A DNA stretch of 12,455 nucleotides, taken from a virus. The position numbers and the translations under genes were made by a program. The DNA lies in UHGV virus genome UHGV-1619099, one strand, 5' to 3'. Positions 9,778-12,455 of this stretch are shown here, in pieces. Positions within the stretch are counted from its first letter, which is position 1; every line of letters starts with the position of its first letter. A model generated the notes under the pieces. That model saw only the letters and a program-made list of their open reading frames with translations, made no database searches and had not been told where the DNA came from.

Positions 9778-9800
9778 AGCCCCGAAAGGGGCTTTCTTAT
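9778..9800 (+). terminator. hairpin agcccc-gaaa-ggggct followed by ttcttat (weak terminator or attenuator between portal and head-morphogenesis genes)
   Basis: 6-bp GC stem with GAAA tetraloop read directly. Confidence 0.4.
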
Positions 9801-9803
9801 AGT

Positions 9804-11696
9804 ATGCTATTAACTTTAGCACCACAGGGTTTAACTATGAGCTTACTTACATCACTCATCAGCCATCAGATATGGCTGCAACGCACCGCATCCGGTGAGG
9901 TGAAAGACCTCGCACCGTTCATTAAGGAGATGCGGGATGAAATAAAACGGCAGGTGCTGTTATTCGGTGATGACGGGCGGAGCACTGCGCGACTGAATAA
10001 ACTGTTACTCGACCTTGAAGAAGCGCTAACCGGACTTACCGGCGATTGGCAAACAAAGCTGACAGAAGACCTTAAGGAACTGGCGGCATACGAGGCTGAG
10101 TGGAACGTAAAGACACTAACCGCCAACGTTAACGCGGAATTTGTTACGCCTACCGCCGAACAGGTGTGGGCCGCCGCCGATTTTCAGCCATTATCGTTAA
10201 ACGACAAGCCTGTTGACTTCACTAAATTGATGTCTGGTTGGGGTGAAACCGAAGTCGCCCGCCTCGTAACTGGAGTTAAGATGGGCTTTGTACAAGGTCA
10301 AACCACACGGCAGATTGTTAAGAATGTCGTAGGCTCTGGTGGGCTGGCCGACATCTCAGAACGTAACGCGGCTACAGTAATCCGCACCGCGCTGTCTCAT
10401 GTATCCAACGAAGCCCGTAACGAGACGTACCGCCAGAACGACGACATCATCGAGAAATACGAGTGGGTATCAACGCTGGACAGCCGTACCAGTACGATTT
10501 GCAGAGCCAGAGACAGGATGACGTGGGAAATCGGTAAAGGGCCGATGCCTCCGGCCCATCATAATTGCTTACTTGGGGATACTGTAGTATCTACCGGTAG
10601 TCCGGTTTCTAACATTTTTAAACGGGCGTACAAAGGCACTATAGTCTATGTCTCTACAAGGTCCGGTCGCACCTTGTCTATCACCCCAAACCACCAGGTA
10701 TTGACTACCAATGGTTGGGTTGCTTCCGGCCTTCTCAATGTAGGCGACAAGCTCGTGTGCGCTAAGGACTCTGCGCTCTCTCTCAAGCATAAGGAACACA
10801 ACGTTGTAGCCAAGTTCTCCGATTTGTTTAGTGCGGCTAATGTAGCGGTCAATCCTGCGGCGGTCCGTACAAGCCCAACCACCACCGAAGACTTCCACGG
10901 CGACGGAACCGACGGCGAAGTCGAGATTGTACTTGTCAACCGCCTTTCCTGGGATAAAGTCAAGTCCGGACTGAATAAGCAAATCATTGACAAGGAACTC
11001 CCAGTGGCTTCCCGCATTTATGACTCCCTCTCTGGCTTTGGCTCTGCGAAGCAGTTCAGCATGGTCGGCCTTTCTCCCTCGGACAGCTTCATGCGCCGCG
11101 GCGGAGAGAGCGAGGCGCTCCTCGGGAGTAGCTTTAGCCATTCTGATAAACATAGCGTCGCTGACACCGCGAATACTAACGCCGTTCTCTCTGAGAACGC
11201 GTATGACTGGGTTACACGAAACGCCGATAATCTTTCCGATTTCAACTGGTCCGATGCCGTCGGTATAGAGCTTGATGATGTTGTCGATTTGGTCTTTAGT
11301 GAAGCTGATTTTTGCGGGCATGTTTATAACCTCGAAAATGAACAGAACTGGTATCTCGCAAATGGAATTATAGCACATAATTGTCGCTCAACAACCGCGC
11401 CAGTAATCAGTTCTGAGTTCGACTTCCTCGATAAAGGCGCAAAACGCGCGGCTAAGGGTGCGGACGGTGGTATGCAGGTAAGTGCAGACACCACCTATTA
11501 TGAGTTCCTCAAACAACAACCTGCGTGGTTTCAGGACCAGGCGCTCGGCCCTGTTCGCGGTAAGATTTTCCGTAACAGCGGTATATCACCGGAAGAGTTT
11601 CGCGTAATATCTGTAGATGGTTTCGGGAATCCGCTCACGCTTAAGCAGATGGCGGAACTCGATAAACGTGTTGCTGATTATCTGAAAGGGGATTAA
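9804..11696 (+). CDS. head morphogenesis protein (MuF / SPP1 gp7-like) interrupted in-frame by an intein; start codon uncertain (9804 or 9837)
   Basis: 630-aa continuous ORF after the portal; without the insert the extein is about 358 aa and carries PPAHHN|CRS at the junction, resembling the conserved H-x-N-C motif of MuF-like proteins (from memory). Confidence 0.65.
   Translation: MLLTLAPQGLTMSLLTSLISHQIWLQRTASGEVKDLAPFIKEMRDEIKRQVLLFGDDGRSTARLNKLLLDLEEALTGLTGDWQTKLTEDLKELAAYEAEWNVKTLTANVNAEFVTPTAEQVWAAADFQPLSLNDKPVDFTKLMSGWGETEVARLVTGVKMGFVQGQTTRQIVKNVVGSGGLADISERNAATVIRTALSHVSNEARNETYRQNDDIIEKYEWVSTLDSRTSTICRARDRMTWEIGKGPMPPAHHNCLLGDTVVSTGSPVSNIFKRAYKGTIVYVSTRSGRTLSITPNHQVLTTNGWVASGLLNVGDKLVCAKDSALSLKHKEHNVVAKFSDLFSAANVAVNPAAVRTSPTTTEDFHGDGTDGEVEIVLVNRLSWDKVKSGLNKQIIDKELPVASRIYDSLSGFGSAKQFSMVGLSPSDSFMRRGGESEALLGSSFSHSDKHSVADTANTNAVLSENAYDWVTRNADNLSDFNWSDAVGIELDDVVDLVFSEADFCGHVYNLENEQNWYLANGIIAHNCRSTTAPVISSEFDFLDKGAKRAAKGADGGMQVSADTTYYEFLKQQPAWFQDQALGPVRGKIFRNSGISPEEFRVISVDGFGNPLTLKQMAELDKRVADYLKGD
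10566..11381 (+). mobile_element. intein (Hint domain, class 1: Cys1 ... His-Asn / Cys+1), 272 codons
   Basis: Block A CLLGDTVV at 10566; block B ITPNHQVLT...GWVASGLLNVGDKL; blocks F/G VYNLENEQNWYLANGIIAHN ending 11381; +1 Cys codon tgt 11382-11384; the ~170-aa linker between blocks B and F has no LAGLIDADG or HNH motif in this frame. Confidence 0.8.
10569..11321 (-). CDS. putative homing endonuclease encoded antisense within the intein: N-terminal HTH + Vsr/DUF559-like (PD-(D/E)xK-related) nuclease domain, about 250 aa
   Basis: Minus-strand ORF 10569..11378 from the ORF track; likely start is the ATG at 11321 (GAGG SD 8 nt upstream); HTH-like IIKLYTDGIGPVEIGKIIGVSCNPVIRVLRENGV; nuclease core LDFAVGSVAVEVFGGGW ... 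DRRRIDRYISRTKQIGELGYNVVFLMLE resembles the Vsr/DUF559 pattern. Confidence 0.7.
   Translation of the reverse strand: MPAKISFTKDQIDNIIKLYTDGIGPVEIGKIIGVSCNPVIRVLRENGVSIRGVSDAMFIRMAKATPEERLALSAAAHEAVRGRKADHAELLRRAKAREGVINAGSHWEFLVNDLLIQSGLDFIPGKAVDKYNLDFAVGSVAVEVFGGGWACTDRRRIDRYISRTKQIGELGYNVVFLMLERERRVLSAHELVAYIEKAGSNPTIGSQYLVVWGDRQGATGPCRDIDYSAFVRPFKNVRNRTTGRYYSIPK
11367..11395 (-). promoter_or_regulatory. extended -10 promoter (TGcTATAAT) on the minus strand driving the antisense endonuclease gene
   Basis: Reverse complement of 11367-11375 is tgctataat; weak -35 ttgttg 16 bp upstream; overlaps the intein C-terminal splice-junction codons. Confidence 0.4.
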
Positions 11697-12184: not shown

Positions 12185-12409
12185 TCAATACCCAGTCTCT
12201 TGGGTTAAGTTAATCTCTTTATTCCAGACGTTTTGGTTATACTTTTCACGAATCTGGCGCATACTTCTACCGAGCGCGGCGGATAGAGACATATCCCCGT
12301 CTTCTTGCGCGTCCAGTTGCATCTGCTGAAGCTCAATATACGCCGAAATATCGCCGCGTAATTCAGCCTGTTCATACTCTTTTTTAAGAAAGGAACCAAG
12401 GTCCTGTAC
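12185..12409 (-). CDS. 3' end of a minus-strand gene (hypothetical), truncated by the window end and adapter
   Basis: ORF 12185..12445 reads ...VQDLGSFLKKEYEQAELRGDISAYIELQQMQLDAQEDGDMSLSAALGRSMRQIREKYNQNVWNKEINLTQETGY; the apparent N-terminus MSRGLGDVYKRQ is translated adapter. Confidence 0.45.
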   Translation of the reverse strand, partial: VQDLGSFLKKEYEQAELRGDISAYIELQQMQLDAQEDGDMSLSAALGRSMRQIREKYNQNVWNKEINLTQETGY

Positions 12410-12455
12410 CTGTCTCTTATACACATCTCCGAGCCCACGAGACACTGAGCGATCT
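12410..12455. other. Nextera adapter read-through (library artefact): mosaic end + read-2 adapter + 8-nt index position + start of flow-cell sequence
   Basis: ctgtctcttatacacatct (12410-12428) + ccgagcccacgagac (12429-12443) + actgagcg (12444-12451) + atct. Confidence 0.9.

Follow-up and report, generated by a model that had tools for sequence, protein, structure and literature searches.

A phage intein with an antisense Vsr-like homing endonuclease whose expression signals appear to be spelled in intein codons

Main

The stretch of DNA analysed here (the window; 12,455 nucleotides of virus genome UHGV-1619099) is Guernseyvirinae siphophage DNA, and its head morphogenesis gene is split by what we consider, at a probability of about 75%, to be a mobile intein that carries a Vsr-like homing endonuclease (HEN) on the antisense strand, with the endonuclease's own expression signals spelled in intein codons. 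The HEN is related to the EDxHD family and is a separate gene, nested in codon register in the intein. Full inteins with anti-sense VSR-like HENs have already been reported from actinobacteriophages (Gosselin, Arsenault & Gogarten, bioRxiv 10.1101/2025.01.02.630785); the present case adds the apparent embedding of expression signals in the codons. That preprint deals with actinophages only, and the strings 'promoter', 'express' and 'ribosom' occur in it zero times. It was the only result of a literature search for opposite-strand intein HENs, and in the literature searched we came across no prior account of expression signals embedded in codons for antisense intein HENs. According to citations in the same preprint (10.1101/2025.01.02.630785), anti-sense LAGLIDADG ORFs have been reported in inteins, as in Synechocystis DnaX (Gorbalenya 1998; Gogarten 2002); there, as here, an endonuclease ORF lies opposite the intein strand, but it belongs to the LAGLIDADG nuclease family.

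Results

The host gene is a MuF/SPP1-gp7-like head morphogenesis gene on the plus strand (9804-11696; Pfam PF04233 and PF14890; PHROG 241), and its orthologue in Snoke is annotated as an intein-containing capsid morphogenesis protein. Between an N-extein (9804-10565) and a C-extein (11382-11696), the translation and Pfam Intein_splicing place a class-1 intein of 272 codons (10566-11381; PF14890 at 40.2 bits against a cutoff of 35.8). It lies in frame in the host protein and has the features of a Hint domain of this class, namely Cys1 (TGC, 10566-68), block B TPNH, block F GHVYNLE, block G GIIAHN, and a terminal Asn (11379-81) directly followed by the +1 Cys of the C-extein (11382-84). A scan of the whole window against Rfam gave no match. 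The insertion site, PPxHxN/C (the slash marks the junction), is identical in all related loci. In approximately 394 phage records the head gene is uninterrupted and matches the spliced extein query in one piece; the junction in K1ind1, Jersey and others reads H-P-N/C-R-S, an exact join of the exteins. At the DNA level the intein-less junction is CCGGCCCATCCGAAC/TGCCGG. Alongside these roughly 394 alleles without the intein there are 70 that carry it, and intein identity stands at 94-96% between copies whose N-exteins are 67-74% identical. Judged from this identity gap and from the coexistence of the two kinds of allele, the intein appears to be an active element. Protein splicing is predicted, given that the head-morphogenesis gene is essential and the phages have been isolated and are viable.

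The HEN gene (10569-11321, minus strand) encodes 250 aa plus a stop codon, with N-terminal helix-turn-helix modules followed by a Vsr-like nuclease core. It lies wholly within the intein, in exact codon register opposite intein codons 2-252, and leaves the sense frame unbroken. We found 14 homologues of the protein at 27-50% identity with conserved nuclease motifs, and homologues begin at the position of 11321. The antisense frame in register with the intein is uninterrupted in 83/84, 78/78 and 46/46 related loci. Substitutions by sense codon position were 71/7/17 and 67/21/38 in the intein centre, compared with 29/22/86 and 18/13/99 in the exteins. At the level of these sequence comparisons, purifying selection in the intein centre demonstrably acts on the HEN frame and not on the sense frame. 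Avoidance of TTA, CTA and TCA, the complements of stop codons, in the HEN keeps the sense frame open: all three are absent from the window HEN (P ~0.001), and the HEN family has 3 of them among approximately 2,650 Leu and Ser codons.

A Vsr-type nuclease fold is recognizable in the window HEN, and an hmmsearch against PDB matched 3r3p_A (E = 9.7e-6), a profile relationship to I-Bth0305I, the prototype of the EDxHD homing endonucleases (Taylor et al. 2011, PMC3239194; PDB 3R3P). Both proteins have the Vsr-like core after DNA-binding modules, whereas the gene for I-Bth0305I is a sense-strand ORF within a group I intron and that for the window HEN lies antisense in an intein. Residues E108, D134 and E143, which are invariant among the homologues, align with the active-site Glu, the Asp and the extra Glu of I-Bth0305I. 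The full EDxHD motif is incomplete: Ala150 of the window HEN stands in place of the general-base His (H213 in I-Bth0305I), and the final Asp has no confident placement. In the window's HEN clade (13 unique sequences) the His position holds Ala or Ser, as opposed to His in 49 others, and nuclease activity is not assured given this replacement of the proposed general base. A Pfam search with the HEN protein gave no match and PHROGs returned weak DNA-binding matches only. Gene callers miss or mis-start the gene in most records, and it is annotated in just 1 of 17 Guernseyvirinae records (PK1). For vB_StyS-sam and PK2, extra hypothetical proteins are listed at the match, which may be the same ORF.

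The predicted extended -10 element, TGCTATAAT, lies on the minus strand at 11367-11375, where the earlier note had correctly located it, and reads on the plus strand as intein codons ATT-ATA-GCA, which encode Ile-Ile-Ala in GIIAHN (positions -5, -4 and -3 counted from the intein end). It matches the TGnTATAAT consensus, and 45 nt separate the hexamer from the HEN start codon. The note's placing of a GAGG Shine-Dalgarno sequence was equally accurate: it occupies 11330-11333 on the minus strand, as the reverse complement of (AA)C-CTC (Asn-Leu, block F), with a gap of exactly 8 nt (11329-11322) to the ATG at 11319-11321, which lies opposite CAT, the His codon of block F. The stop codon TAA (10569-10571, minus strand) lies opposite intein codon 2, which reads TTA (Leu) on the plus strand. 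Hence, all four signals lie within the intein (10566-11381). Transcription is predicted to start near 11360, which gives a 5' UTR of approximately 38 nt (11322-11360). This 5' UTR is predicted to be unstructured, which speaks against an RBS-sequestering hairpin as in fractured-gene HENs.

Two further elements in extein codons were considered as parts of the same minus-strand expression unit, and neither is supported. The first is a weak -35-like TTGTTG (11389-11394, minus strand; C-extein codons Ser-Thr-Thr), 16 nt upstream of the -10. It agrees with TTGACA at 3 of 6 positions, is absent from the list of the consensus scan, has no conservation among close relatives or family-wide, and probably lacks function. 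No conserved -35 signal was found in the extein codons across the window's clade, and the promoter would consist of the -10 or extended -10. The second is a GC-rich inverted repeat in the N-extein codons for GPMPPA (10539-10557, minus strand), 11 nt beyond the antisense stop, suggested as an antisense terminator. The repeat itself is present, with arms gggccg at 10539-10544 and cggccc at 10552-10557, but a role as a terminator is not supported. Its hairpin (dG -12.9 kcal/mol, z = -0.47) folds at chance level, with 58 of 200 shuffles folding at least as well, and the tract after the stem, CUUUACCGAUUUCCC, is a weak U tract (3 U directly after the stem; U at 3 of the first 8 bases). It is not listed in a consensus terminator scan of the window. 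Comparable hairpins are present in alleles without the intein, the stem is degraded in SE1, PhiSTP2 and BPS11Q3, and family-wide a hairpin with a T-run downstream of the HEN stop was seen in 1 of 54 clusters, against 1.3 in shuffles. We therefore reject it as an antisense terminator.

The strongest competitor, which we regard as unlikely, is that the HEN is real but transcribed from elsewhere, by read-through from the right or from TTTACC-18-GATAAT at 11989-11960, and that the block-G -10 is not a working promoter. The consensus promoter scan does list the 11989-11960 site and omits the block-G element, the latter because of its poor -35. Nor is the -10 invariant. Among 17 Guernseyvirinae copies, three read TATAAC and have lost the key final T, three further copies have lost the TG of the extended -10, and two carry TAGG instead of GAGG, all with intact HEN ORFs. 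Against this, the consensus scan found a good intrinsic terminator at the right-hand minus-strand gene (12180-12161; AAGGCCCC-GTAA-GGGGCCTT, then TTTATCATT), placed on the minus strand so as to separate the HEN from the genes to its right; the Snoke annotation gives its counterpart as terminating transcription in both directions. Read-through into the HEN would be blocked there, which leaves the HEN in need of its own promoter. Moreover, a promoter beyond the intein borders would be left behind when the intein moves, and the block-G element alone is conserved family-wide at a constant spacing to the HEN start. We infer from sequence conservation that the block-G -10 functions as a promoter.

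On its own, the occurrence of the motif in the window says little. TGNTATAAT is found once across both strands of the 12.4-kb window (0.24 expected), and this is weak evidence because 48 of 200 shuffles contain at least one. The lack of significance of the single copy would suit a reading in which the motifs are functionless by-products of the conserved residues Ile-Ile-Ala-His-Asn and Asn-Leu-Glu, as would the fact that Ile-Ile forces A2, T3, A5 and T6 of the hexamer. We give this reading very little credence, given the results of family tests on 54 sequence clusters of the window's intein clade, in which simulations resampled synonymous codons with the amino acids fixed. TAnnnT occupies the exact -10 position in 34/54 clusters, far above the 8.4 expected from extein codon usage and the 13.3 expected from uniform codon usage, TGnTAnnnT is found in 18/54 (1.4-2.5 simulated) and the Shine-Dalgarno sequence in 35/54 (11.0 simulated), with the proviso that clusters share ancestry and their counts are thus not fully independent events. 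None of 5,000 simulations reached any of these counts, and the enrichment also holds with uniform codon usage and 70% clustering. At the -10 offset, 35/54 clusters agree with TATAAT in five or more of its six positions, whereas other offsets average 0.67 such clusters. Further evidence against mere by-products is that even genomes of 60-70% GC use the rare codons ATA, GTA and TTA, and that a second clade carries a perfect promoter, described below.

The bias resides in the individual signal codons, with CAT, CTC, ATT, ATA and ACA enriched 2- to 3.4-fold. In block F, His is CAT in 41/49 clusters (19.3 expected), the other eight having CAC and thus a GTG start; Leu is CTC in 36/53 (13.0 expected) and Asn is AAC in 43/49. 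In block G, Ile-5 is ATT in 37/46 clusters (11 expected) and Ile-4 is ATA in 19/29 (7 expected), and Thr-3 is ACA in 17/33 (5.7 expected). The HEN stop falls on intein codon 2 in 33/54 clusters, and Leu2 is TTA or CTA in 33/36 (6.8 expected). No bias was seen at the adjacent His-2, Asn-1 and Cys+1 or at several internal codons (2, 7, 13-16), and some other A/T-ending codons of the 5'-UTR stretch have a weaker bias. A recognizable -10 at the block-G place is missing in approximately one-third of the clusters, mostly high-GC ones. Taken as comparative evidence, these counts demonstrate that synonymous-codon choice maintains the -10/TG, Shine-Dalgarno, start and stop sequences throughout a large and deeply diverged family. 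The conservation proposed as a check in the earlier note is thus borne out for the -10 and Shine-Dalgarno sequences, which exceed the synonymous expectation, with the restriction that the -10 varies, and fails for the hairpin. Of the proposed minus-strand promoter and ribosome-binding site, the parts within the intein are those that the comparative evidence favours.

In a second, independent intein clade the antisense strand carries TTGACA-N17-TATAAT, perfect at 12/12 positions in 19/45 clusters and matching at 11/12 or more in 30/45 (0.19 in simulation). The same arrangement and motifs recur in prophage and MAG copies from many phyla. These inteins thus appear to use two or more promoter layouts, one being the extended -10 of block G and another the full TTGACA-N17-TATAAT that stretches across blocks F-G. 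The recurrence in prophages and MAGs, together with the position of -10/TG, Shine-Dalgarno, start and stop inside the intein, gives comparative support to the note's suggestion of a self-contained two-strand module. A constraint on the sense strand, imposed for instance by mRNA structure or by pausing at rare codons ahead of the C-terminal splice junction, could mimic an antisense promoter, and ATA, TTA and TCA are indeed rare codons near that junction. This is highly improbable, given that the constrained bases spell sigma-70 elements, with the canonical 17-nt spacing, in two codon contexts and at a fixed distance upstream of a conserved antisense SD-ATG, whereas the Shine-Dalgarno codons AAC and CTC are not rare and the codons next to the junction (His-2, Asn-1, Cys+1) are unbiased.

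Least credible of all is that the conserved bases are coding sequence for a longer HEN N terminus, translated from an ATG at 11378 (a 269-aa ORF, 10569-11378), which is the first ATG in the ORF listing and the start of some database gene calls (P0001, P0002, P0010), but which is rejected by in-frame stops between the two starts in 21/54 clusters (TAG in SE1 and PhiSTP2), by in-frame TAA and TGA within the -10 and -35 of the second clade themselves, by constraint on just three codons by the 11378 start, and by a Shine-Dalgarno sequence that precedes the 11321 ATG.

Discussion

We propose that the intein carries the HEN together with a working antisense expression unit. Host RNA polymerase would start near 11360 on the minus strand, and translation of the resulting leadered mRNA (5' UTR, about 38 nt) would yield the HEN. 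During mixed infections the HEN would cut intein-less alleles, and homing would thereby be driven. Since the -10, Shine-Dalgarno, start and stop sequences lie inside the intein, the element would carry its own expression cassette along. The antisense transcript would probably end in a Rho-dependent manner or by collision with late sense transcription, rather than at the proposed hairpin, and its perfect complementarity to the late mRNA may confine HEN expression to early times. A literature search for transcription starts, RNA-seq data or antisense transcripts of Jersey-like phages, which was partly ill-targeted, returned nothing usable.

In contrast to the actinophage inteins of Gosselin et al., the HEN ORF here extends over the entire N-terminal splicing lobe as far as intein codon 2, where it stops, and blocks F and G hold its signals. 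In the 'fractured genes', split inteins have a free-standing Vsr-like HEN between their halves (Dassa et al. 2009, PMC2677866). The same HEN family accompanies phage inteins in both systems. In the fractured genes the host gene is broken in two and the HEN has its own intergenic space, with its own control elements, a late-promoter-like TATAAATA and hairpins over the RBS (PMC2677866). Here, the host ORF is intact, the HEN and its putative signals are overprinted on intein codons, and the 5' UTR has no hairpin over the RBS.

On balance we also find probable, with less assurance than the main reading, a broader generalization: that the C-terminal splicing motifs of these inteins are a dual-use code, which also spells an antisense sigma-70 promoter, ribosome-binding site and start in two layouts, that the inteins are autonomous two-strand selfish elements, and that head-on antisense transcription may time the HEN. 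The same bases would then hold several layers of information, comprising two proteins, a promoter, a ribosome-binding site and start and stop codons. Such codon constraints are relevant to any re-engineering of these inteins and, if the proposal is true, synonymous recoding should abolish homing with the intein protein unchanged. It would also explain how an endonuclease encoded against the late structural operon is expressed, a point left open by the 2025 preprint, and would mean that an intein can hold a complete expression cassette inside its own borders.

Results

The window belongs to a Guernseyvirinae siphophage, Kagunavirus/Jerseyvirus-like, and its nearest record is Escherichia phage Snoke, with 94% identity across the head morphogenesis gene. 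Alongside terminase and portal genes, the region has a plus-strand Mu F/SPP1-gp7-like head morphogenesis gene (9804-11696; Pfam PF04233, PHROG 241), which is interrupted by a class-1 intein of 272 codons whose boundaries we placed at 10566-11381. The splicing motifs are found in the translation (Cys1 in CLLGDTVV, block B TPNH, block F GHVYNLE, block G GIIAHN), the +1 Cys (11382-84, plus strand) follows directly, and the Pfam Intein_splicing model exceeds its cutoff. In Snoke the intein is already annotated in both the database record and the genome announcement, and among phage records approximately 70 carry the intein and approximately 394 the uninterrupted allele. The host protein goes by the name 'NAD+--asparagine ADP-ribosyltransferase' in several records. 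At the contig end, an exact 34-nt Illumina Nextera adapter (CTGTCTCTTATACACATCTCCGAGCCCACGAGAC; 12410-12443, plus strand) is an artefact; the last ~46 nt are not phage sequence, and the ORFs at 12185-12445 and 12205-12438 (minus strand) extend into the adapter. Salmonella phage UPWr_S5 has ~1 kb in the portal-to-MuF region that is absent from the window, including two minus-strand ORFs of ~217 aa annotated as hypothetical (202-855 and 1237-1887 of its locus, L003), which might be further mobile genes.

The minus strand of the intein holds a 250-aa ORF for a Vsr-like homing endonuclease (HEN; 11321 to 10569), and by its database homologues and substitution pattern this is a real gene. Among the 14 homologues (27-50% identity), E108, Y131-N132-D134, V142-E143 and G146 are invariant and G147 and W149 nearly so, and the homologue profile matches the I-Bth0305I catalytic domain (3r3p, E = 1e-5) and helix-turn-helix modules. 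Across 17 Guernseyvirinae copies, substitutions at sense codon positions 1/2/3 number 29/22/86 in the N-extein and 18/13/99 in the C-extein, both sense-coded. In the intein centre the tallies are 71/7/17 (first part) and 67/21/38 (second part), and because these changes concentrate on the antisense third position, the HEN frame, but not the sense frame, is under purifying selection there. HEN and sense codons share an exact register, and therefore the sense frame stays open simply by the HEN avoiding TTA, CTA and TCA, none of which occurs among the 17 Leu and 14 Ser codons of the window HEN (P about 0.001) and only 3 of which occur family-wide in ~2,650 HEN Leu and Ser codons.

Ala150 of the window HEN (10872-10874) sits where EDxHD enzymes, Vsr and I-Bth0305I have the proposed general-base His. 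The window's HEN clade (related loci L001-L019) reads GGGW[A/S]x[T/S][D/E], whereas most relatives read GGxWH; the His is present in 49 of 62 unique sequences and absent in 13. Because Ala or Ser replaces it in the window's HEN clade, the strict EDxHD motif is lacking there, and the evidence that the HEN would be active is indirect.

The HEN ORF crosses the whole N-terminal splicing lobe (10569-10871; intein codons 2 to ~100, HEN residues ~150-250), with block B TPNH opposite HEN ..VVWG.. and the HEN stop exactly on intein codon 2. Here both frames are open family-wide, substitutions divide 47/18/52 among the three sense codon positions and the last 50 HEN residues, at the C terminus, are still predicted as beta-strands (pLDDT 68-82), so that these ~100 codons may be truly dual-coding. 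In phage PK1 (L002) the antisense ORF is entered as a hypothetical protein whose start is the upstream ATG equivalent to 11378; vB_StyS-sam (database matches H55/H61) and PK2 (H70) have two additional hypothetical proteins where the match falls, which may be the same ORF, and most other records, Snoke included, leave the position unannotated. A HEN extended at its N terminus from ATG 11378 was rejected as an explanation of the signal conservation described below: of 54 clusters in the window's clade, 21 have an in-frame stop between the two start codons, as do SE1 and PhiSTP2.

The earlier note had read, on the minus strand, an extended -10 element, TGCTATAAT (reverse complement of 11367-11375, intein codons att-ata-gca), and a GAGG Shine-Dalgarno (SD; reverse complement of 11330-11333) 8 nt ahead of the ATG at 11321; every coordinate proved correct when the motifs were re-read. 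Within the window alone, the single TGNTATAAT is not significant (one copy on both strands, 0.24 expected, at least one in 48 of 200 shuffles). The 22-codon stretch running from the block-F His through the +1 Cys served as anchor for the 54 clusters of sequences from the window's clade (clusters sharing <85% identity across 132 nt), and codon choice there was compared with that expected from the usage in the exteins of the same locus. The strongest departures fall on the signal codons: the start (ATG) as His CAT in 41/49 (19.3 expected), the SD (GAG) as Leu CTC in 36/53 (13.0), the -10 as Ile-5 ATT (AAT) in 37/46 (11.0) and Ile-4 ATA (TAT) in 19/29 (7.0), and the TG (TGT) as Thr-3 ACA in 17/33 (5.7). 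The Asn codon is AAC in 43/49. A weaker bias is seen at some A/T-ending codons of the predicted 5'-UTR stretch (codons 3, 6, 8-10, 12), and no bias at His-2, Asn-1, Cys+1 or internal codons 2, 7 and 13-16 in these clusters.

When synonymous codons were resampled with amino acids fixed, none of 5000 runs reached the counts observed at the site in the 54 clusters for TAnnnT (34; simulated mean 8.4), TGnTAnnnT (18; 1.4) or the SD (35; 11.0). Cluster counts exceed the number of independent events, given that clusters share ancestry, although synonymous sites nearby are in many cases randomised. The enrichment persists when codon usage is taken as uniform and when clusters are drawn at 70%. TATAAT is matched at 5 or more of 6 bases in 35/54 clusters at offset -51 relative to the ATG, against a mean of 0.67 at other offsets. 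The -10 and SD are thus conserved in homologous inteins beyond chance by these synonymous-site tests. About a third of the clusters have no recognisable -10 at the site, and in Guernseyvirinae it is not invariant (TATAAC in 3/17 copies, via an Ile-to-Val change); the TG is lost in 3/17 and the SD reads TAGG in 2/17. Judged by codon choice, the HEN stop is likewise embedded: it lies on intein codon 2 in 33/54 clusters, and of 36 Leu2 codons 33 are TTA or CTA (6.8 expected).

The minus-strand gene to the right of the HEN ends in an intrinsic terminator (12180-12161, minus strand; rated good and annotated in Snoke), a context in which the HEN would need a dedicated promoter. The antisense terminator with a U-rich tract that had been proposed in the GPMPPA codons is not supported. 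Its inverted repeat gggccg/cggccc (10539-44 and 10552-57) lies 11 nt past the antisense stop (complement of 10569-71); the hairpin (-12.9 kcal/mol, z = -0.47) is equalled or bettered in 58/200 shuffles, only 3 U immediately follow the stem, the consensus promoter/terminator scan of the window does not call it, and SE1, PhiSTP2 and BPS11Q3 no longer have an intact stem. Intein-less alleles carry comparable hairpins, because these come from the target site's own GC-rich Gly-Pro..Pro-Ala codons, and family-wide a hairpin plus T-run 3' of the HEN stop occurs in 1/54 clusters against a background of 1.3. A -35-like TTGTTG (11394-11389, extein codons) is conserved neither in close relatives nor in the family. 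Since both extein elements are unsupported, the signals lie in intein, not extein, codons. Between the portal and head morphogenesis genes, a terminator-like plus-strand hairpin (9778-9793; AGCCCCGAAAGGGGCT then TTCTTATAGT) lacks a minus-strand T-run and so would not stop an antisense transcript.

A second clade of inteins, also inserted at the MuF site of the window's intein (clade 2; L102-L179, e.g. L112 and L135; C-terminus HVYDLQT.SSLY.ANG.LSSN/C), supplies an independent replicate, with antisense TTGACA-N17-TATAAT at one fixed place in its last 13 intein codons. Leu-4/Ser-3/Ser-2 (YTG-TCA-AGY) supply the -35 as their complement, and Ser-12/Leu-11/Tyr-10 (TCA-TTA-TAY) the -10. Of 45 clusters, 19 match at all 12 positions, 30 at 11 or more (0.19 in simulation) and 34 at 10 or more (1.4). 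A GGAGG-type SD, present in 34/45, and an ATG come next. The codons TCA and TTA used here are exactly those forbidden in the HEN-overlapped part. Prophage and metagenome-assembled copies have TGTTATAAT or TGCTATAAT in Chloroflexota, Firmicutes, Armatimonadota, Sumerlaeota and Peregrinibacteria, and TGATACAAT in Actinomycetota. High-GC actinobacterial copies ending ..IVSN/C (L183, L188, L189, L212 and L220, from Streptomyces, Nanopelagicales, Mycolicibacterium, Glycomyces and Actinomyces) spell antisense TGATACAAT or AGATACAAT, using GTA and TCA, both rare codons, at a place shifted by one codon towards the intein end relative to the window.

IMG/VR scans returned 462 and 483 relatives in overlapping sets, of which the best 80 of each were examined, and species-representative genomes added 46 from MAGs and prophages in at least ten phyla. 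The in-register antisense frame is open over the whole HEN in 83/84, 78/78 and 46/46 loci, and all related loci have a MuF-like protein with the intein at the same PPxHxN/C site; the family is large and its architecture fixed. In the sole exception, L013 (1231-1285), the sense intein and HEN frames break at one point; possible causes are an indel, an error of sequencing or decay of this copy. In comparisons of the window with L091, L093 and L096, inteins are 94-96% identical, N-exteins only 67-74% (S55, BPS11Q3 and PST-H1 are examples of such phages) and C-exteins ~81-85%. This is the pattern expected from recent homing, and the element is probably active. For phage sidste, similarity is 84.5% in the 200 nt adjoining the insertion site versus 67.5% in the distal N-extein, which could reflect co-conversion.

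Discussion

In two different codon contexts, sigma-70 consensus elements with the canonical spacing precede an SD and start that are themselves conserved, which favours reading them as promoters and is hard to explain otherwise. The earlier note's motifs are exact, and its -10 and SD, unlike its terminator, stand above chance in the comparison; the proposed two-strand, self-contained module is supported in part, for the intein-encoded promoter and ribosome-binding site but not for the terminator or the extein part. That the intein codons contain a self-contained promoter and ribosome-binding site is, from comparative sequence evidence, very likely.

Full inteins with antisense VSR-like HENs were reported in 2025 in actinobacteriophages, minor capsid proteins included, in a preprint silent on promoters and translation signals (bioRxiv 10.1101/2025.01.02.630785). 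A HEN of the same family, lying between the halves of split inteins and equipped with control elements of its own, was described by Dassa et al. 2009 (PMC2677866), and Taylor et al. 2011 characterised I-Bth0305I (PMC3239194); the window element therefore belongs to a kind that has been recognised only recently. Whereas fractured-gene HENs have hairpins that sequester the ribosome-binding site (PMC2677866), the predicted 5' UTR of the window HEN (~11360-11322) is unstructured (dG -5.7, z +0.99). A HEN contained wholly within the intein, between codon 2 and block F, appears undescribed, as does the apparent embedding of its promoter, SD, start and stop in splicing-motif codons. These results extend antisense-HEN inteins to phages of enterobacteria and, in metagenomes, to a very broad family.
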